DNA of 64,000 nucleotides from Dehalococcoidia bacterium (GTDB lineage: Bacteria; Chloroflexota; Dehalococcoidia; Plut-88900), in assembly GCA_965197645.1 (NCBI GenBank), contig OZ240219.1, forward strand, positions 1,696,001 through 1,760,000. Reading direction: 5' to 3'. Shown here piece by piece: positions 9,116 through 31,851 of the stretch (its first letter is position 1; every line of letters begins with the position of its first letter). Under the pieces are notes generated by a model. That model was not told where the DNA came from. It ran no database searches and worked only from the letters and a program-made list of their open reading frames with translations. The position numbers and the translations under genes are program-made.

Positions 9116-9643
9116 TTGGCGGTTCGTCCCCTTAGAGTCGTGCCCGATCCGGTCCTTCGGCAGAAGGCCAAGAAGGTACGAAACATAGACGCCTCTATAC
9201 GCAGGCTGGTCGAGGATATGATCGATACGATGCGGGCCAACCATGGGGTTGGGCTGGCGGCGCCCCAGGTTGGCGTGTCCCTCAGGGTTATAGTAATCGA
9301 GATACCGGAGGAGCCGGTACTGACCATGGTCAATCCGGAAATAGTGAAAAGGTCCGGACTGCGGGATGTAACCGAGGGCTGTCTCAGCGTGCCCGGCTAT
9401 CGAGGCGAAATCAAGCGCGCCGAGACGATCACTGCCAAGGGACTGGGCCTTGACGGCAAAGTGGTACGGATCAAGGGCCAGGAGCTTCTCGCCCAGGCTC
9501 TGGAGCACGAAACTGGACATATTCAGGGCAACCTATACACTGACTTGCTGGAGAGCATGGACGATCTCTACAGGCTGGAGCTGGCAGAGGAATCGCCGAG
9601 GATCCATGCCGCCGATCCAGTATCCCACGGTACGGATAGTTGA
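9116..9643 (+). CDS. def: Peptide deformylase
   Basis: GVGLAAPQ, EGCLS, HETGH (variant of HExxH); TTG start. Confidence 0.93.
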   Translation: MAVRPLRVVPDPVLRQKAKKVRNIDASIRRLVEDMIDTMRANHGVGLAAPQVGVSLRVIVIEIPEEPVLTMVNPEIVKRSGLRDVTEGCLSVPGYRGEIKRAETITAKGLGLDGKVVRIKGQELLAQALEHETGHIQGNLYTDLLESMDDLYRLELAEESPRIHAADPVSHGTDS

Positions 9644-11130
9644 ACACTGAAACAGAGATAGATACCAACGCTGTCCCTTTCCTGGGGCAGCTGGCAGCAC
9701 ATATCCGAGACCACGCCGGCGAAACCTACCTGGTTGGCGGGTTCCTGCGGGACACTCTCCTGGGTCGATCGACCGGTGACATCGACCTGGCGGTTACGGG
9801 CCCCTTCGAGTCCCTGGCTGGGACCATCGCAGACTCCTTGAACGGTACCCTCGTAGTGCTGGGCAAAGAGGAGCGGGTTGCCCGGGTAGTCTTATCCACT
9901 GACGAAGTCCGCCAGATAGACATCACGCCCATCACCGAGGACATAGCCTCGGATCTGGCGCGCCGAGACTTCACCATAGATGCCCTGGCCGTCTCACTGG
10001 ATTACGCAAACGGCGCACCCTGCGTTGCCGACGTCATCGATCCATTCGGCGGGGTGAAGGACCTTCGAAAAGGGGTAGTCCAGGCAGTGGGTACGGAGGT
10101 CTTCCGAAACGATCCGGTGAGGATGATGAGGGCGGTCCGGCTGTCGGCCGAGCTCGGCTTCTCCATAGACCGGGACACTCGGACCCTCATCAGAAGAGAC
10201 TGCCAGCTGTTGAAGGGAGTACCGGCCGAACGGACAACAGCCGAGTTGTGTCTCATCCTCGCCTCGAACCGCACACACCAATCGCTTGGACTGATGGAGG
10301 ACCTGGGCCTGCTGCGACTGATCATACCGGAGCTGGATGAAAGCATAGGCGTAGAACAGCCGAAGGAACACTACTGGGAGGTCTACGAGCATTTGCTGGA
10401 AACGGTACGCGCCGTCGAGCAGGTCATGGGCGAGACCACCGAAGAGCCCGATGCGTTCATAGGTTCCCTGGACTGGACTGGCGAGTACCTTCATTACCTG
10501 AATGAAGAAATGGCGGGTCCCTGCTCCAGGCGGGGCCTTGCGAAACTGGCGGCGCTTCTACACGACGTGGCCAAACCCCGGACCAAGACCATCCAACCCG
10601 ACGGTAGGATGAGGTTCTTCGGCCACTCCCAAGTTGGAGCCGAAATGGTGGGCCCAATCATGAGGAGGTTGCGGTTCGGTACGCGGGAGACGAGGCACGT
10701 GGAAGCCATAGTACTCCACCATCTCCGGCCGGGCCTGATGAACAGCCCCGGAGAGCCACCCACGCCTAGGGCGATCTACAAGTTCTTCCGCGACGCCGGC
10801 CGCTCCGCCGTGGACACCGTTCTGGTCAACCTATCCGATTACAGGGCCACCCGCGGGCCGATGCTTACCTGGGATGAATGGACCAGATACACGGAAAACT
10901 GCAAGCGTATCCTATCCAAGGGTCTGGAACAGAAGGCCCCTCGCCCTAAGCCCCTGGTCACGGGACATGATCTGATGAAGACGCTGCGAATATCCGAGGG
11001 CCCGCTGGTGGGAAGGCTGCTCGAAGAAGTTAGGGAAGCCCTGGCTGCCGGAGAGATCGATACCCGGGAGCAGGCCCTGGAACTGGCCGGGAAAAAGGTT
11101 GGAGCCTCGGTATCTGAAAGTACCGATTGA
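9640..11130 (+). CDS. Class II tRNA nucleotidyltransferase with HD domain (probably CC-adding type)
   Basis: VGGFLRD..DIDL, DLARRDFT, DPxRxxR, LHDVAKP HD domain. Confidence 0.85.
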   Translation: MNTETEIDTNAVPFLGQLAAHIRDHAGETYLVGGFLRDTLLGRSTGDIDLAVTGPFESLAGTIADSLNGTLVVLGKEERVARVVLSTDEVRQIDITPITEDIASDLARRDFTIDALAVSLDYANGAPCVADVIDPFGGVKDLRKGVVQAVGTEVFRNDPVRMMRAVRLSAELGFSIDRDTRTLIRRDCQLLKGVPAERTTAELCLILASNRTHQSLGLMEDLGLLRLIIPELDESIGVEQPKEHYWEVYEHLLETVRAVEQVMGETTEEPDAFIGSLDWTGEYLHYLNEEMAGPCSRRGLAKLAALLHDVAKPRTKTIQPDGRMRFFGHSQVGAEMVGPIMRRLRFGTRETRHVEAIVLHHLRPGLMNSPGEPPTPRAIYKFFRDAGRSAVDTVLVNLSDYRATRGPMLTWDEWTRYTENCKRILSKGLEQKAPRPKPLVTGHDLMKTLRISEGPLVGRLLEEVREALAAGEIDTREQALELAGKKVGASVSESTD

Positions 11131-16473: not shown

Positions 16474-17727
16474 CTACTCGGGGGAAGCTGTGGTCTCGGA
16501 GATGAGGGCTTCCCCTTCCGAGATGAGCTCCCGTTTTCTCTGCTCGGACCAACCCCTGGAATCGGACATCGAGTCGACGTAGGCTTTGAGGGAGTCCAGC
16601 GGGGTCATCGACTCTACGGACTGATCGCCCAGCCTGACGGTGCGCTCCCTTTCCACCTCTCTGGATATGGATGCGACGAAGTGGGCGTCGGACAGGGCTC
16701 TGCGGATCTCCGCCTCGCGGATGCCGGCGTCCAGCTCTGAGGGGACCTTGATGCGGAGGCGGACTATGGCGTCGGCGATCGAGTGTCGCTGTACCTCCCG
16801 GAGTACGACAGCCGTCGGGTCCAGATCGTCGGGTTTGACGTCGATGTCGATGGTGACGAAACGCCTGGCCTTTACCTGGTGGAACTGGTAGGAGGTAACC
16901 CGCTGGCCCTGGGGCAACGACGGGTCTATATCGACTACGTAGAATCCCTTGTCGTCCTTCTCTTCGCCGAAGTCCACCCGCTGCAGGCTGCCGCAGTACA
17001 CGACGGGCGGCGATTCGTTCAGCACCTGCATGCGATGGATGTGGCCGAGGCCGACGTAATCGAAGGTGGGCTGTGAAACGGTGCTTCGGAGCAGGACGTG
17101 ATCGCTGCCGACCATCATGCTCCGCTCCGAGCCGAGGGTGGCTTCGGATATGGACACGTGGGCGGTGAGGATGGAGGGGATGGAGGCGTCGAGGGCCTGG
17201 GACTCCTTCAGCACGTGGGCGGTCAGGATGTCCTCGATGCGCCGGTTCATCTCGTCGAAGGTGAGATTCTTTGCGGTGTCTCTCGCCAGGAGGACGCTGC
17301 GTCGAGGCCAGGGGATGGCGACGATCTGGACGGGGCCGGAGCGGGTCTCTATTCGGGTTGTGCCGGCGGTCCCGGCTACTGTGACGTTGTCGATGGCCAG
17401 GGTATCGAATATCTCGATGGCGGTGGCCCGGGCGAGGGCATTGGGTAGATCGTGGTTTCCCACCAGGAGGAAGACCTTGATGCCCTCTCCCGCCAGGCGG
17501 CCGATGCGCTTGGCGAACTCTCGCTGCTGGGTCTGGTTGGGCTCTCTGCTCTTGTAGGCGTCCCCGGCGAAGAGGACCAGGTCCACGGAGCTTTCTATGG
17601 CGAAGTCCACCAGCTCGTCGAAGGCGGCGAGGAAGTCTCCCATGCGGGTGGAGAGGCCGGTGGCGGGATCGGTGCGGCCATAGTTCTCCACGCCGATGTG
17701 CAGGTCAGAGAAGTGGAGTATACGCAT
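16474..17727 (-). CDS. sbcD: SbcD/Mre11 family DNA repair nuclease
   Basis: SDLHIG, AGDAY, VGNHD, AH, LGHIH phosphoesterase motifs; GSLQRVDFGE. Confidence 0.92.
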   Translation of the reverse strand: MRILHFSDLHIGVENYGRTDPATGLSTRMGDFLAAFDELVDFAIESSVDLVLFAGDAYKSREPNQTQQREFAKRIGRLAGEGIKVFLLVGNHDLPNALARATAIEIFDTLAIDNVTVAGTAGTTRIETRSGPVQIVAIPWPRRSVLLARDTAKNLTFDEMNRRIEDILTAHVLKESQALDASIPSILTAHVSISEATLGSERSMMVGSDHVLLRSTVSQPTFDYVGLGHIHRMQVLNESPPVVYCGSLQRVDFGEEKDDKGFYVVDIDPSLPQGQRVTSYQFHQVKARRFVTIDIDVKPDDLDPTAVVLREVQRHSIADAIVRLRIKVPSELDAGIREAEIRRALSDAHFVASISREVERERTVRLGDQSVESMTPLDSLKAYVDSMSDSRGWSEQRKRELISEGEALISETTASPE

Positions 17728-17931
17728 TAGGGGTGGGGTTGGGTATTTTACCTAGGGTTTGCGCCGGATTGACGCCGAACTCACTCGTCTAGTGTGCTGC
17801 TCCCTATGGAGACCTCAATGATAACAAACGGACGAAAAGAACGCCGGCGTTTACTGAAGAAGACGTTCTCTTGGGTTAAGTCCCGAATGCTATAGGTATC
17901 GCGGCTATGCTACAATGACATTGATTATGGT

Positions 17932-18375
17932 CTAGAATGGCAAATCGTCTGCTACCATCACGGGATCGTCTGAATTGCTTTCCCAATCAGCCAGCGCCCA
18001 CATTCCTTGGCCAAGACTCACAAATCTGGCGTCAGAACTTAGGTGAGCACCTGTATTCTTGACGGGGTCTTCCCCGGGTACATTGATGCCATAGTCAAGC
18101 AAATTGTCGTATATCGCCTTATAGTGCAATGGGGTTTGAGCACACCCCAGTATCTCGAACATCGTATCGTGCAAATCTTCTGACCGCAGTTGTTGACCTG
18201 CGGTGGCTCCTTCCCACTGGGAGTAGTCAGCGAGCATACCTCGATAATTCTCAACTTTCTCAGCGATGTGGTCGTATGAGGCTTGTGCCTCCTTCAATTG
18301 CCTGTCGCGATCTCCCAACTCTGCCTCCAACTCTTTCAGGCGTTTCGTTACGTCGCGGATTACGATACTACTCAT
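17932..18375 (-). CDS. Coiled-coil + HARE-like winged-HTH protein with SSB-like C-terminal DDLPF tail (147 aa)
   Basis: RBS AGGAGGAGG before ATG 18375; heptad-rich N-terminus; EILxxAxxPLHYKxI...AHLSSDARF...GxGxWxLxxW; ends VADDLPF. Confidence 0.7.
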   Translation of the reverse strand: MSSIVIRDVTKRLKELEAELGDRDRQLKEAQASYDHIAEKVENYRGMLADYSQWEGATAGQQLRSEDLHDTMFEILGCAQTPLHYKAIYDNLLDYGINVPGEDPVKNTGAHLSSDARFVSLGQGMWALADWESNSDDPVMVADDLPF

Positions 18376-18430
18376 AAAATTCCTCCTCCTAGCCCTTGAC
18401 AACATGACCCTAGTGTGTTCAATGAATGTG

Positions 18431-18502
18431 TGGAGAGGACGGGTATCGAACCCGCATCACCCGACTCTAACTCGGGTATCTTCCCCATTAGAAGACCTCC
18501 CC
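18431..18502 (-). tRNA. Non-canonical tRNA/tRNA-like gene: Ala-type acceptor, anticodon UAG, no encoded CCA
   Basis: GGGGAGG/CCUCUCC-A acceptor, U8, D-loop AAUGGGGA, anticodon arm CCCGA-GUUAGAG-UCGGG, 4-nt variable loop, T-arm GCGGG-UUCGAUA-CCCGU. Confidence 0.75.
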
Positions 18503-18667
18503 ACGACGTGCATTCGGTAGGGTTTGCCCCCCGCCACCGGATCCCCGCAAGGGACCAGTGGCCAATGCCGAAGGTACGTGTGGCCCAGGTAGGGATTGCA
18601 CGTACAGCATTAATTGGTGTTGCAGCACCAGCTGATACTCCTGTGATCTCAGGCCCCTGCCTGGGCC
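18503..18667 (-). ncRNA. Putative structured non-coding RNA or leader upstream of the tRNA-like element
   Basis: GGCCCAGG-C-AGGG pairs CCCT-A-CCTGGGCC closing an 87-nt module; second 60-nt module GCATTGG...CCGAATGC with internal hairpins; starts at the predicted TSS. Confidence 0.5.
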
Positions 18668-18673
18668 ACATCC

Positions 18674-18703
18674 ATTGTAGGGCAGCGCATGATACGCCGT
18701 CAA
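18674..18703 (-). promoter_or_regulatory. Sigma70-type promoter for the ncRNA-tRNA-like-HTH unit
   Basis: TTGACG (18703-18698)-18 nt-TACAAT (18679-18674); +1 would fall about 18667. Confidence 0.65.
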
Positions 18704-18775
18704 TCGGAATATGAAGCAATTTTCCCCATGTAGTGTCCACCCGTCTCGTGCCTGCCGCAGAATGGCCATCGATAG

Positions 18776-19027
18776 TCAGTTATCAACCCGTACGATGGAG
18801 TGACCCATGGCCGGCCCCAACTTCGCTGGCAGGCCGTTCCGCCTACAATGAAGTCTGGCGAAGGCTGCCATCTTCCTGCGAGTCACCTCGAGGAATGTGT
18901 TTCCGTCCCATCCTCCAGCCCATTCCGTTGCACGTCCCATTCCGGCTAAGGCGAAAAGAAAGCTGTACACCGGCTCTGGTGGTCGGTTGAGGTACGAGAT
19001 TTTAACTACACCCACATCGAGTCCCAT
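18776..19027 (-). CDS. Small hypothetical protein, possibly 3'-truncated
   Basis: G-rich RBS before ATG; globular-looking N-terminus (MGLDVGVV..WAGGWDGNTFLE); C-terminus looks random. Confidence 0.4.
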   Translation of the reverse strand: MGLDVGVVKISYLNRPPEPVYSFLFALAGMGRATEWAGGWDGNTFLEVTRRKMAAFARLHCRRNGLPAKLGPAMGHSIVRVDN

Positions 19028-19099
19028 GCTGTTCCCCCCGTTGAATTTGGTCCAGCATTGTATCGGACCCGCGGCGATTTGAGAGGACCCTAACGGAAA

Positions 19100-19208
19100 C
19101 CCTCACCCCTGGCCCCTCTCCCTTAGCAAGGGAGAGGGGAATAAGAACAGGTGGGGGACACCCCCATACCCCCGTCAAAAGGGGCAAGGCCCCTTTGGAA
19201 TCCCCCCT
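19100..19208. repeat. REP-like palindromic elements
   Basis: CCCTCACCCC-TGG-CCCCTCTCCCTT-AGC-AAGGGAGAGGGG perfect hairpin, then GGGGACACCCCC...AAAGGGGC-AAG-GCCCCTTT-GGAATCCCC. Confidence 0.65.
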
Positions 19209-19286
19209 GTATCGACGGCTAGTTGGGAGAAATCAGGTGGGGAACCCCCGGCTCTCGTTTCGGGGTTGAGGAAAGGGCCGGTGGCC

Positions 19287-20612
19287 TCAGCTCTCTAGCT
19301 GGTTTCGCAGGGCGTCCGCCAACCCGTCTATACTCACCCGCTCCTGGGCCATGGTGTCCCGGTTGCGGACGGTGACCTGGTGGTCATCCAGGGAGTCGAA
19401 GTCCACGGTGACGCAGAGGGGCGTGCCGATCTCGTCCTGCCGGCGGTAGCGGCGGCCGATGCTCTGGGCATCGTCGTACTGGGCCCGGAAGTGGGAGCGC
19501 ACCTGGTTGAAGACCTCCCTCGCCTTGGGCAGGAGCTTTTCGTTGCGGCTCAGGGGCAGGACGGCCACCTGCACCGGGCAGAGGTCTTTGTGCAGCTTCA
19601 GCAGGACTCGGGTCTCATCGCGGACCATCTCCTCGTGGTAGGCGTCGATGATGAAGGCCAGGGCGGCCCTGTCCACGCCGGCGGCAGGCTCGATGACGTA
19701 GGGCAGGACGTGCTCCTTGGCATCGTTGTCGAAGTAGGTTAGCGAGCGGCCGCTGCTCTGGGAATGCTGCTTGAGATCGTAGTCGGTGCGGTTGGCGATG
19801 CCCTCGAGCTCGGACCAGCCCATGGGGAAGAGGTACTCGACGTCGGAGCAGGCCTTGGCGTAGTGGGCAAGCTCATCGGCCTCGTGGGGCCGGAGGCGCA
19901 GGTTTTCCTTTCGAATGCCCAGGTCAACGTACCAATCGAACCGCTCCTGAATCCAGTACTCGAGCCACTCGTCGTCGGCGCCGGGGTTGACGAAGAACTC
20001 CATCTCCATCTGCTCGAACTCCCGGGTACGGAAGGTGAAGTTGCCGGGAGTGATCTCGTTGCGAAAGGACTTGCCTATCTGGGCGATGCCGAAGGGGAGG
20101 CGCTTGCGGGTGGAGGTGAGGACGTTTTCGAAGTTGACGAAGATGCCCTGGGCGGTCTCCGGCCTGAGGTAGACGGTGGCGGCGTCCTCCTCGACGGGGC
20201 CCATGAAGGTCTTGAACATCAGATTGAACTGTCGAGGATCGGCCAGATCGCCCCCGCAGTCGGGGCAGGTGTCACCCTCGAGATCGTCGGAGCGAAAGCG
20301 GTGATGACAGACCCGGCACTCGACGAGGGGGTCAGAGAAGCTGTCCAGGTGCCCGCTGGCCTTCCAGACATCGGGATGGAGAAGGATGGCCGAATCGAGG
20401 CCGACGACGTCGTCCCTCCCGTGTACCATCGATCGCCACCACGCCTCCTTGACGTTGCGCTTGAGCTCGACGCCCAGGGGGCCGTAGTCCCATACGCTGC
20501 CGAGGCCGCCGTATATCTCGCTGTTCTGAAAGATCAGCCCCCGGCGCTTGCACAGGGACACGATCTTCTCCATCGTCACTACGTCCGAAGTTTGGGTCAC
20601 AGGGGTCTCCAT
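19287..20612 (-). CDS. glyQS: Glycine--tRNA ligase, alpha2 type
   Basis: [58 protein letters not shown]; start ATG 20612 or GTG 20600. Confidence 0.95.
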
Positions 20613-20762
20613 CGTGGTCGGTAGTCGGTAATGTACGGGTCTGACGCTTTTTCGAACGTTAACAATTTCGTCCAGGCATGTCAAAAGCGGATTTGAGTAG
20701 CGTCTTGACTGGGCAAGGCGCGATATGACAGACTAGGTCGTTGCTTCGGTAATCAGTCACAG

Positions 20763-29988: not shown

Positions 29989-31851
29989 TTGTATGTCATA
30001 GGCACAGCGGGACACGTAGACCATGGGAAGTCGGCGCTGGTCCAGGCGCTGACCGGCATCGATCCGGACCGGCTCCAGGAGGAGAAGGAGCGGGGCCTGA
30101 CCATCGATCTCGGGTTTGCCTGGTTGACCCTGCCCAGCGGGCGTGAGGTCAGCATCGTCGACGTTCCAGGCCACGAGCGATTCATAAAGAACATGCTGGC
30201 CGGTGTGGGAAGCATAGACCTGGCCCTGCTGGTTGTTGCCGCCGACGAGGGGGTCATGCCCCAGACCCGGGAGCACCTGGCCATAGTCGATCTGCTCAGG
30301 ATCGACCGCCACCTGGTGGTGATTACAAAAAAGGACCTCGTGGAGGACGACTGGCTGGAGCTGGTTGAGGCCGATATCCAGGACGCCATCGAGGGGACGA
30401 GCCTGGAAGGGGCACAGATAATGGCGGTCTCGTCGATCACGGGAGACGGGCTGGACGACCTGGTGGCTGCCGTCGATGGCATGCTGCAAGAGGCGACCCC
30501 GAAGCAGGATATCGGCAGGCCGAGGCTGCCCATCGATCGCACGTTCACCATATCGGGATTCGGGACGGTGGTAACGGGTACGCTGATAGATGGCAAGCTG
30601 ACCGTCGGGCAGGAGGTCGAGGTCGTTCCGGGAGCGATAAAGAGCCGCATCCGGGGCATCCAGACCCACAAGAACAAGGTGGAGGTGGGGTCTCCGGGAT
30701 CGAGGGTGGCGGCCAACATATCGGGAGTGGGGCACGCGGAGATACGCAGGGGCCAGGTCCTCACTTCTCCCGGCTGGCTCAGAGAGAGCACCGCCGTTGA
30801 CGTTCGACTACGGATCATCCCGGATTGCCCCATCTCGATAAGACATAATGCCGCGGTGACCCTTCACATGGGCACCAGCGAGACGCCGGCCCTGGTGAGG
30901 CTGCTGGACTCGCAGGAGCTGGAGCCGGGCGCCGAGGGTTGGGCCCAGCTGCGGCTCCAGGACCCGATCGCCTTCATCAAGGGAGACCTGTTCATCATCC
31001 GGTCCCATCTGGGGACCCTGGGGGGCGGCGAGGTGGTAGAGACCCAGCCAAAACGGCACAAGCGTTTCCACGACAAGACCGTGGAGCGGCTGGAGGTGCT
31101 GGCTCAAGGTACTCCTGGGCAGGTGTTGATCAAAGTGCTGGAGTCCTCGGAGCCGCTTTCGGTGAAGAACCTCGTTCGAATAAGCACTCTCGCCGAGGAT
31201 ACGGCCAGGGAAGCCGTGCGGGCCCTGCACGAGGAGAAGGGGATAGTGGTGCTGGGAAAGGATGGACTCCAGGGCAATCCTCTCCTTTATTCCTATGCGG
31301 GGTGGCAGACTGTCAGGGAGAACAGTGAGGAGTACCTGCGGGGATACCACGAGCAGAACCCGCTGCGGCCGGGGGCGCCCAAGGAGGAGTTCCGCGGCAG
31401 GTTGAAGCTCTCGGCCCAGGCCTTCCCCCAGGTAATGGAGCGGCTGAAAGAGGAGGCAGTAGTCGTGGAAGAGGGTGCATCGGTGAGGCTACCCTCTCAC
31501 ACCCGGACGGTTAGCCAGGGCCAGCAGCAGGAGATAAACGCCTATCTGAAGGCGCTGGCCGGCAATCCCTTCTCGCCACCGACGGATATATCGATACTGC
31601 CGGAGCTGCTGTCAGGCCTGGTGGAGGAAGGCAAGGTGATCCGGGTCAGTGGAGACGTGGTCTTCGAGGCCGGTGCCTATCAGAAGATGGTCGACCAGGT
31701 GGTAGAGGAGGTGAGAGCGGAGGGCAAGGTGACAGTGGCGAGGGTAAGGGATATGTTCAAGACCAGTCGCAAGTACGCGCTGGCGTTTATGGAGTACCTG
31801 GACCAGGAAAAGATCACCCGTCGGGTCGGGGACGACAGAGTGCTGAGGTGA
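29989..31851 (+). CDS. selB: Selenocysteine-specific elongation factor
   Basis: [28 protein letters not shown]-terminal winged helices ending SRKYA..LEYLD..TRRVGD. Confidence 0.95.

Follow-up and report, generated by a model that had tools for sequence, protein, structure and literature searches.

What does a tRNA gene do when its acceptor end belongs to one amino acid and its anticodon to another, and is such a gene a gene at all? The question is raised by positions 18431..18502 (minus strand) of the window, as we call the whole stretch of 64,000 nucleotides analysed here (G000:C1:1696001-1760000, from the 3.21-Mb, single-contig genome G000). ARAGORN, which the earlier note on this DNA had named as a check, placed a tRNA-Leu(tag) at 18430-18502 and no other tRNA in the 64-kb window. 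Read as the reverse complement, the minus strand from 18502 to 18431 is a 72-nt class-I tRNA gene that aligns with Rfam RF00005 at full length (model positions 1-71 of 71) and, at 48.2 bits, clears the gathering score of 29 (E = 3.2e-07, taken over the 64 kb). The acceptor stem, GGGGAGG/CCUCUCC, consists of G1-C72, G2-C71, G3:U70, G4-C69, A5-U68, G6-C67, and G7-C66, with A73 as the discriminator; it is followed by U8 C9 and by a D stem (UUCU/AGAU) with a U10.U25 mismatch and the D loop AAUGGGGA, A14 and G18G19 being present. The anticodon stem CCCGA/UCGGG carries the loop GUUAGAG (G32, U33, anticodon UAG, A37, and G38), the variable loop is the 4-nt UGAU, giving A15/U48, the T arm is GCGGG-UUCGAUA-CCCGU, and the trailer reads CAC, not CCA. 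Acceptor and T stems have the canonical 7 and 5 bp (7/5), 20 of the 21 pairs are intact, and the strand folds into a cloverleaf-shaped four-way junction of -34.7 kcal/mol (z -3.78), with none of 200 shuffles as good. Altogether, this is a genuine tRNA gene, beyond chance. The earlier note, which gave no strand, had described an alanine-type cloverleaf with a UAG anticodon and a 4-nt variable loop, each feature of which was confirmed from the reverse complement, and the oddities that it entered as caveats, namely G32/G38, the U10-U25 mismatch, and the missing CCA, are all in the sequence as well. A match to permuted tmRNA (Rfam, 17.7 bits vs 47) was rejected, being merely the T arm.

According to the account in PMC9976931, the first three acceptor pairs and A73 are conserved in all known prokaryotic tRNA-Ala, and AlaRS recognises G3:U70 together with G1-C72, G2-C71, and A73 and ignores the anticodon. 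That G3:U70 is the determinant of an anticodon-blind AlaRS had been pointed out before, and it holds for this locus, where the complete alanine acceptor set is present. Among the 50 tRNA calls that ARAGORN makes in G000 (besides one tmRNA), G3:U70 occurs in four, the three tRNA-Ala and the window tRNA, and the same four are the only ones with the set G1-C72/G2-C71/G3:U70/G4-C69/A73. What the window tRNA lacks of a tRNA-Ala is the anticodon, UAG instead of an alanine NGC. What it lacks of a bacterial tRNA-Leu is the class-II long-arm body; all six canonical tRNA-Leu of G000 are class II with a long variable arm, and they measure 85-87 nt versus its 72 nt. The view that a bacterial tRNA-Leu needs this arm, held in the earlier note, is too strong: for leucylation in E. 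coli, PMC9976931 describes A73, A15-U48, and G18G19 as the features that matter and the long variable arm and the anticodon as dispensable. All of these E. coli LeuRS determinants occur in the window tRNA, and with A73 and A15/U48 in place it could therefore also be charged by LeuRS.

The window tRNA is supernumerary, because G000 encodes a canonical class-II tRNA-Leu(UAG) of 85 nt elsewhere. The codon CUA is rare, though in use, at 4.8 per 1000 codons, or 4.9% of leucine codons, as counted in a crude set of 1987 ORFs of at least 300 aa. CCA is encoded by 47 of the 50 tRNA calls, the exceptions being the window tRNA and two irregular calls; a CCA-adding-type nucleotidyltransferase is encoded in the window at 9640-11130, and no RNase Z was found in G000 at the NCBIfam cut-off (best match 72.7 vs 292.95 bits). 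Judged by its letters, the window tRNA combines a body of alanine type with an anticodon arm for leucine (UAG), a kind of hybrid gene that standard annotation tools label 'tRNA-Leu'.

The gene sits in a segment of about 1.56 kb (17728..19286) between an sbcD-like gene (16474-17727) and glyS (19287-20684). The order along the minus strand is glyS, a REP-like repeat, an 83-aa ORF (18776..19027, minus strand), a promoter-like site, a leader, the tRNA, a spacer, a 147-aa ORF, and the sbcD-like gene. The promoter-like site, a sigma-70-like TTGACG-18-TACAAT at 18674..18703 (minus strand; 10 of 12 matches), is the only one in 17700-19300, where 1.1 are expected by chance, and its position makes it a candidate promoter. 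The 168-nt leader (18503..18670, minus strand) is structured, with a fold of -82.1 kcal/mol (z -3.58; 0 shuffles as good) and a 16-nt inverted repeat (18579-18594/18655-18670). Apart from the tRNA, no Rfam family was found at E≤1 in 18300-18800, and blastn detected no conservation of the leader at homologous loci. On the other side of the tRNA, a 55-nt spacer with a Shine-Dalgarno-like GGAGGAGG (18376..18430) leads to the 147-aa ORF (17932..18375), both on the minus strand; no minus-strand terminator-like site was found between the tRNA and this ORF, so that the two probably form one transcript. Neither the inserted cassette nor the partner protein had figured in the earlier account of the tRNA.

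GlyRS was found in 10 of 11 family relatives of G000, and none of these 10 has a tRNA within 1.5 kb of glyS, which stands beside an sbcD homologue in 7 of them (about 70-510 nt apart) and beside a Leu/Phe-dehydrogenase gene in 2. The 147-aa protein was found in none of the 11 relatives, nor did a search of genome contigs with this HARE-type protein return any relative. Because the relatives' glyS loci are without the tRNA and the relatives without the 147-aa protein, the segment 17728-19286 is a lineage-specific insertion. Metagenome contigs of relatives, from four runs, appear to join 17727 to 19350 and 17733 to 18825, in keeping with an empty site and with a tRNA/HARE part that can move separately. 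The contig of a relative with the joint from 17733 to 18825 seems to retain the region of the 83-aa ORF without tRNA and HARE gene; membership of this ORF in the cassette is uncertain, and its product has no match in Pfam, PADLOC, or PHROGs. Metagenome runs X5 and X6 cover the HARE gene, the tRNA, and the leader patchily at a depth of 1.5-6, too thin for evidence, and at the borders of the insertion, where only short repeats (10-13 nt) were found, neither terminal repeats nor a target-site duplication is convincing. Altogether, the window tRNA gene is horizontally acquired, in a cassette inserted between glyS and sbcD. The neighbouring glyS is an ordinary syntenic gene, ancestral and outside the cassette, and 10 of the 11 family relatives have it without the tRNA.

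A blastn search of 40 relatives with the 72-nt tRNA returned only a 31-nt T-arm match; blastn being too insensitive, covariance models were used instead. With the single-sequence model R1, 151 genomes of the class yielded, besides the G000 member, ordinary tRNAs at no more than 59 bits (Ala, Gly, Lys, and Gln) and one tRNA with an alanine body and an AAG anticodon. A pattern that describes class-I tRNAs by the acceptor end GGGG...CUCCA and the anticodon NAG, and that is biased by design, was scanned against one genome per species for 185,579 species and found 45 loci, 12 of which are tRNA-Leu calls of ARAGORN. Two of these, L070 and L100, from metagenome-assembled genomes labelled Dehalococcoidia, are clear homologues of the window tRNA and share with it U8 C9, the D arm, the T arm, G3:U70, A73, and the lack of CCA; the U10.U25 mismatch recurs in L100. 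An anticodon-blind pattern of the D and T arms added L110, on a JGI metagenome contig, whose tRNA is identical to that of L121 in genome G164, so that four distinct homologues are counted (window, L100, L070, and L110).

Model R2, built from these four sequences, scored the members at 91-98 bits and all other tRNAs of five genomes at no more than 57 bits. The hybrid tRNA family is very rare: by covariance model it has members in 1 of 151 genomes of G000's class, by D-arm pattern in 1 of 401 (only G000), and members occur in 3 of 151 genomes among relatives of G156; R2 found 1 of 151 across G156's order, only G156 itself. The D-arm/T-arm pattern had 0 matches in viral contigs. Control patterns in viral contigs gave, as raw matches and matches confirmed by ARAGORN with that anticodon, 21 and 2 for NAG, 16 and 2 for NAC, 3 and 0 for NGT, and 6 and 0 for NGG, and no leucine-specific excess of alanine-acceptor tRNAs was shown in these controls.

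Across the four homologues, 96.4% of cells are paired, and three pairs (5-68, 6-67, and 29-41) have changed on both sides. Positions that never vary are G1-G4, U70-C72, A73, G49:U65, A14, A15, and U48; G3:U70 is thus kept in all four, with covariation in the pairs just below it. The odd features are kept as well, U8 C9 and the absence of CCA in all four and the U10 mismatch in three, and the canonical tRNAs examined in the hosts (Ala-UGC, Tyr, and Leu-GAG) all encode CCA. The covariation is real, but it is thin, for the window and the other three amount to no more than two independent lineages. The earlier note had named random decay of the anticodon arm among homologues as an outcome that would speak against its reading. 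No such decay was observed: the arm retains a 5-bp stem, with a single compensatory change, as well as the 7-nt loop and U33. The suspicion of a pseudo-tRNA in that note is likewise disfavoured by near-intact pairing, covariation, and conservation of the very features that had looked irregular.

The anticodon itself changes. Loop positions 32-38 read GUUAGAG in the window (anticodon UAG), UUGAGGG in L100 (GAG), CUGAGAA in L070 (GAG), and CUGUAAA in L110 (GUA, Tyr); with UAG, GAG, GAG, and GUA on one body, what is selected is not the reading of CUA in particular. Even the orthologous loci L100 and L110, whose flanking genes are shared, differ at 5 of 7 loop positions. The anticodon arm of L110 equals the canonical tRNA-Tyr arm of its own host in 17 of 17 nt, and the L100 loop is that of the canonical tRNA-Leu(GAG) of G156, G157, G164, and G000. 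The window loop is the least canonical of the four, differing from the loop of the tRNA-Leu(UAG) of G000, CUUAGGA, at 32, 37, and 38. To judge from these sequences, the variation looks like an exchange of decoder-quality arms on a constant alanine-type body, not like drift in a loop free of constraint.

All four homologous tRNAs stand 55-100 nt upstream of a small ORF with a helix and a winged helix-turn-helix (wHTH), on the same strand and with a strong Shine-Dalgarno motif before the ORF. The 147-aa protein of the window, type A5, reaches 22.9 bits with Pfam PF05066 HARE-HTH, below the cut-off of 25.9, and its type forms eight clusters in a set of 5.8 billion proteins, some of them carrying the annotation PF05066 HARE-HTH. 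Its AF2 model (mean pLDDT 80.9) has a helix at 2-58 and a C-terminal winged helix, and the best Foldseek match, a weak one, is the RNA polymerase delta subunit 8x6g_E (E 0.018), with 2krc and 2m4k also matched. The protein of L100, L070, and L110, type A6, forms 13 clusters with no Pfam match; its predicted fold, a helix at 7-44 plus a winged helix (pLDDT 78.4), has the same architecture as A5, and its weak Foldseek matches (Rok, RpoE 9a6y_A, and 8x6g_E) overlap with those of A5. Comparison of A5 with A6 by hhalign gave a probability of 6% and E 0.006, so homology is not shown by sequence, and the shared predicted architecture with the overlapping weak matches to RNA polymerase delta and Rok winged helices hints at a relationship between them. 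No partner protein has a match in PADLOC or PHROGs.

The linkage extends beyond the four tRNAs. A6-type proteins occur in 26 of 151 relatives of G156, and of the 25 A6 loci listed, 11 are preceded on the same strand, at 60-180 nt, by a tRNA-like element; they are exactly the 11 loci whose protein matches at E≤1e-25, and none of the 14 weaker loci has one. Nine of the 11 elements pass the Rfam tRNA gathering score, one is called by ARAGORN only, and one is irregular with only a 15-bit R2 match; a full CCA is encoded by none. By our reading of the sequences, six of the 11 appear to have an alanine acceptor (G3:U70 and A73) with the anticodons GUA, GAG, GAG, GAU, GAA, and GAG, and three appear to be class-II serine-like bodies with G73 and the leucine anticodons UAA, UAG, and CAA, the loops of these three being canonical leucine loops of G000. 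A5-type proteins occur in 18 of 151 relatives of G156, and at 7 of the 20 A5 loci listed (6 of the 18 genomes) a tRNA-like gene precedes the ORF on its own strand by 113-204 nt, a count that leaves out one tRNA on the other strand. All but one of these loci have a class-II body, with the anticodon UAA (3 loci), CCA (Trp), or UCA; the UCA tRNA, which is in both listed G235 loci, passes Rfam tRNA-Sec (55.9 vs 47 bits), and some of the A5-linked tRNAs (L201, L203, and L207) encode CCA. The three best A5 loci in other genomes have no upstream tRNA and carry a small ORF there instead. At one A5 locus the tRNA is of the same odd type as at an A6 locus, and this occurrence of the same tRNA types before A5 and A6 is the best evidence that both proteins play the same role. 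Most cassette bodies would, again by our reading, be of alanine type (G3:U70 and A73) or class-II serine type (mostly G73, with one A73 and one U73), and their anticodons are those for Leu, Tyr, Phe, Ile, or Trp, or UCA. Alanine and serine belong to those amino acids whose synthetases take no account of the anticodon, SerRS not reading it (as described in PMC11028032).

The window locus has the layout common to these cassettes, i.e., a small helix plus winged-helix gene preceded at 55-205 nt, on the same strand, by a tRNA-like gene. Some cassettes are multi-copy, with four copies in G207 and five in G235. The 2.8-kb core in G207 holds the tRNA, the A6 gene, an ORF pair, and a 306-aa ORF between 1.2-kb repeats; we take the ORF pair to be an IS5-family transposase and the flanking repeats to be IS630-like. 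The neighbourhood of L110 has a PaREP1/HEPN gene, the neighbours of L100 are presumably HicB-like and Phd/PIN-like ORFs and those of L070 presumably IS5-like ORFs, and no toxin-like gene was found in the window cassette. Altogether, the comparison of loci points to the hybrid tRNAs being part of a previously undescribed mobile cassette, in which they directly precede the gene of a small DNA-binding-type protein.

A gene with alanine determinants, conserved with covariation, carried by an insertion, and recurrently linked to a protein gene calls for a functional reading. The most economical one is miscoding, because alanine or serine bodies of anticodon-blind identity are combined with decoder-grade anticodon arms of other amino acids: the cassette tRNAs would be missense or nonsense suppressors, and the window member would be an alanine-charged tRNA from a mobile cassette that reads CUA and probably CUG. 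We give this reading a probability of about 0.45. We infer for the window cassette a course of transcription, processing, charging, decoding, and regulation in which the promoter would be followed by the leader, by the tRNA without CCA as the first gene, and by the gene for the coiled-coil plus HARE-type winged-helix protein. RNase P would cut the transcript at G1, the 3' side would be trimmed, and CCA would be added by the CCA-adding-type enzyme of the window. AlaRS, acting via G3:U70 and blind to the anticodon, would charge the tRNA with alanine, and on the ribosome the charged tRNA would compete for CUA codons (and probably, through wobble, for CUG) against the canonical class-II tRNA-Leu(UAG), with low-level Leu-to-Ala miscoding as the outcome. 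As for the linked winged-helix protein, its most likely task is control of the operon. Because the canonical tRNA-Leu(UAG) is present and CUA is normally used, the outcome would be ambiguity, not reassignment, and owing to G32, A37, G38, U10.U25, and C9 the window tRNA may decode poorly. Partner genes show no enrichment of matching codons, and this counts against miscoding, as do the absence of an encoded CCA, the absence of an RNase Z at cut-off, an anticodon that differs even between the orthologues L100 and L110, the possibility of charging by LeuRS, the best A5 loci being without a tRNA, the A5-A6 homology that sequence does not show, and the great rarity of the family.

The serious competitor, which we nonetheless hold to be unlikely, is that the cassette tRNA is a processed and probably aminoacylated RNA of the mobile element that does not decode and serves, together with the winged-helix protein, as a decoy or target of tRNA-directed nucleases, as a sensor, or as one half of a toxin/antidote-like pair. 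A precedent that also weighs against miscoding is that in E. coli some irregular tRNAs, found close to toxin-antitoxin systems and transposons, received an amino acid and yet took no part in translation, for which another service to the element has been suggested (in the account of PMC5389517). The accessory genes around L110, L100, and L070, the multiple copies in G207 and G235, G32/G38 in the window loop, and the inconstant anticodon all accord with such a role, whereas two of the four loops match those of canonical decoders exactly, down to positions 32, 37, and 38, which a non-decoder would not need, no partner protein has a PADLOC or PHROGs match, and the window cassette has no toxin-like gene. 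Decay is the least probable account of all. A functionless pseudo-tRNA carried along by the insertion could explain U10.U25, C9, G32/G38, the missing CCA, the low-end Rfam score (48 bits), and the restriction to one genome within the family (none of 11 relatives has it), but all of the 21 pairs except one are intact, the pairs covary, the odd features persist across four sequences in different contexts, and the linkage to the partner gene is conserved.

A role without aminoacylation, with the tRNA shape acting in the 5' UTR of the winged-helix gene as a processing or stability element for RNase P and 3' trimming, would agree with the constant position 55-180 nt upstream of the ORF, with the lack of a visible terminator in between, and with the missing CCA throughout the A6-type set. 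We regard it as very unlikely. RNase P recognition needs neither G3:U70 nor A73 nor an intact anticodon arm, and yet these are conserved together with U33 and canonical loops, and three A5-type tRNAs do encode CCA. Charging by LeuRS, alone or alongside AlaRS, would turn the gene into an odd, harmless, class-I extra tRNA-Leu. Here A73, A14, A15/U48, and G18G19 are on the supporting side, as are leucine anticodons in three of the four family members and the dispensability of long arm and anticodon in E. coli (PMC9976931), and we consider it distinctly unlikely nonetheless: G3:U70 together with G1-G4 and A73 never varies and is what AlaRS chiefly recognises, one orthologue has a tyrosine anticodon, the canonical tRNA-Leu genes of these genomes differ strongly in acceptor stems and D arms, and alanine- and serine-type bodies with many anticodons in related cassettes fit anticodon-blind mischarging better.

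The miscoding reading can be drawn wider, and in this wider form we hold it only tentatively, as a picture that is rather doubtful. Some Dehalococcoidia-type Chloroflexota would possess a mobile two-gene cassette that pairs a purpose-built miscoding tRNA, made of an alanine or serine body and an anticodon arm copied from a decoder of Leu, Tyr, Phe, Ile, Trp, or opal codons, with its own winged-helix regulator; it might permit a switchable, proteome-wide replacement of mostly hydrophobic residues by alanine or serine, for adaptation to stress or conflict or, as a tRNA-based toxin/regulator pair, for persistence of the element, with the window tRNA as the alanine/CUA member. To our knowledge, few natural code-breaking tRNAs of bacteria have come to light, namely allo-tRNAs and tRNAProX with ProRSx. 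An alanine-type tRNA that is conserved, mobile, and partner-linked, and whose sister cassettes swap anticodon arms, some of them identical to host decoders, would, if charged and decoding, be a third, independent kind of dedicated mistranslation machinery, from an uncultured phylum, with a built-in regulator and a clear evolutionary route through exchange of the anticodon arm.

The nearest relatives in kind are the allo-tRNAs and irregular tRNA polycistrons of soil bacteria (Mukai et al. 2017, PMC5389517). Their body identity (Ser, or Ala via G3:U70) conflicts with the anticodon, leucine codons included, as in the window tRNA, and they too occur in an accessory or mobile context, near toxin-antitoxin systems and transposable elements; irregular tRNAs bearing G3:U70 inserted alanine in E. 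coli (PMC5389517; review, PMC7609411). They differ in having a 12-bp acceptor branch of 8/4 or 9/3 and a long variable arm, in contrast to the 7/5 branch and 4-nt variable loop of the window tRNA, and the main account of PMC5389517 describes no helix plus winged-helix partner gene and deals with another phylum. The tRNAProX group (ProA/ProT/ProN) of Streptomyces and Kitasatospora, with its synthetase ProRSx (Schuntermann et al. 2023, PMC10404621), resembles the cassette in that one identity is kept, the anticodon varies, and a partner gene adjoins; tRNAProX and ProRSx cause proteome-wide missense substitution, according to the same source. There the identity is proline and the partner a synthetase isoform, whereas the window cassette has alanine identity and a small winged-helix protein, with no dedicated aminoacyl-tRNA synthetase isoform beside the tRNA. 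The mitochondrial tRNA-Ala(UAG) of Ashbya gossypii combines UAG with G3:U70 exactly as the window tRNA does and, as PMC7609411 relates, is charged by AlaRS and reads CUU/CUA as alanine; that case is a mitochondrial codon reassignment, whereas in G000 the canonical tRNA-Leu(UAG) persists and CUA is in normal use. A tRNA plus winged-helix cassette of the present kind was not found in the literature searched, whose scope was the articles without their supplements, and Figs. S5-S7 of Mukai et al. may hold similar tRNAs. Hybrid-identity bacterial tRNAs (allo-tRNAs and tRNAProX) and the pairing of UAG with G3:U70 in Ashbya mitochondria were thus already known; new are a canonical 7/5, class-I, alanine-type tRNA family with switching anticodon arms in Chloroflexota and the conserved coupling of such a hybrid tRNA to a small helix plus HARE-type winged-helix gene in a mobile cassette.

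The surroundings of the window tRNA contain two structured intergenic segments. Immediately downstream of glyS lies a REP/MITE-like repeat (19098-19220) with a perfect 12-nt hairpin inside it (19113-19124/19128-19139); according to blastn, approximately 20 incomplete copies, 68-91% identical, are scattered over the genome. Directly 5' of the tRNA, on the minus strand, the leader (18503-18670) forms a strong fold closed by a 16-nt inverted repeat (z score of -3.58). No Rfam family matches this leader, and the homologous cassettes do not retain it.

In genome G207, four copies of a 2.8-kb unit were found, comprising the tRNA, the gene for the A6-type winged-helix protein, IS5-like transposase open reading frames (ORFs), and a 306-aa ORF (locus L192, 5245-10470). 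The unit is bordered by 1.2-kb IS630-like repeats, and the arrangement looks like a composite transposon. In the closest relatives of the A5-type gene, the type found in the window, from other genomes (loci L196, L198, and L199), no tRNA is present upstream; its place is taken by a short conserved ORF of approximately 60-70 aa, and this replacement suggests that the ORF is an alternative first gene of the cassette.

Alanine-type bodies with leucine anticodons were also detected in other Chloroflexota genomes (L098, 2001-2072; L082, 2001-2072; L083, 2001-2071, in genome G069; and L101). These are ordinary tRNA-Ala-like molecules with a typical alanine D arm, G3:U70, and A73, some with an encoded CCA, and carry the anticodon UAG, GAG, or AAG. 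As no helix plus winged-helix gene lies downstream of these four tRNAs, they constitute a separate class of Ala/Leu hybrids. In Actinomycetota, Acidobacteriota, and other groups, elements of approximately 70 nt with the pattern GGGG...GGUUCGA...CUCCA (L071, L081, L085, L091, L092, L102, L103, L109, and others), the majority of them without an ARAGORN call, appear to form a small tRNA-like family of their own, whose acceptor end is of the G3:U70 type.

Nine viral contigs (L130-L133, L139, L140, and L142-L144) share a tRNA-like gene for which ARAGORN made no call; its acceptor end is of the type GGGGAG.../...CCUCUCCACCA, with a single variant ending in CCCCUCCACCA, and its anticodon arm reads CAGA-CUGUAAA-UCUG (Tyr GUA). 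In two other viral contigs (L054, 11-85; L057, 812-886), a phage tRNA combines an acceptor end of the alanine type, GGGGCCA.../...UGGCUCCACCA, with a UCA (opal) anticodon, which makes it a candidate UGA suppressor that would insert alanine. The source genome of the window itself encodes a SelB-like elongation factor (window 29989-31851) and, outside the window, a tRNA-Sec (C1:214533-214631), and therefore the organism uses selenocysteine.

Elsewhere in this genome, ARAGORN made two further calls, both without CCA. The irregular 89-nt tRNA-like element at C1:904114-904202, called "Leu gag," has a hairpin and a promoter-like site ahead of it, and its 5' half is similar to an irregular tRNA-like element located 5' of an A6-type gene in genome G173 (L168, 1321-1403); no partner ORF was seen next to the 89-nt element in the source genome. 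The 95-nt "tRNA-Thr ggt" call at C1:492888-492982 has a poor acceptor end; most likely it is either spurious or one more tRNA-like element of irregular form.

Within the cassette family, locus L110 harbors a second irregular tRNA (1567-1660, identical to L121 1403-1496), separated by 4 nt from the family member that follows it; at the corresponding place in L100, only a degenerate remnant of this second tRNA is left. ARAGORN designates it "Gly gcc," and the Rfam tRNA model gives it 50.1 bits. Its length is 91-94 nt, its variable arm is long, and its two ends can form a 9-bp pairing. Together with the adjacent family member, it forms a tandem resembling allo-tRNA.
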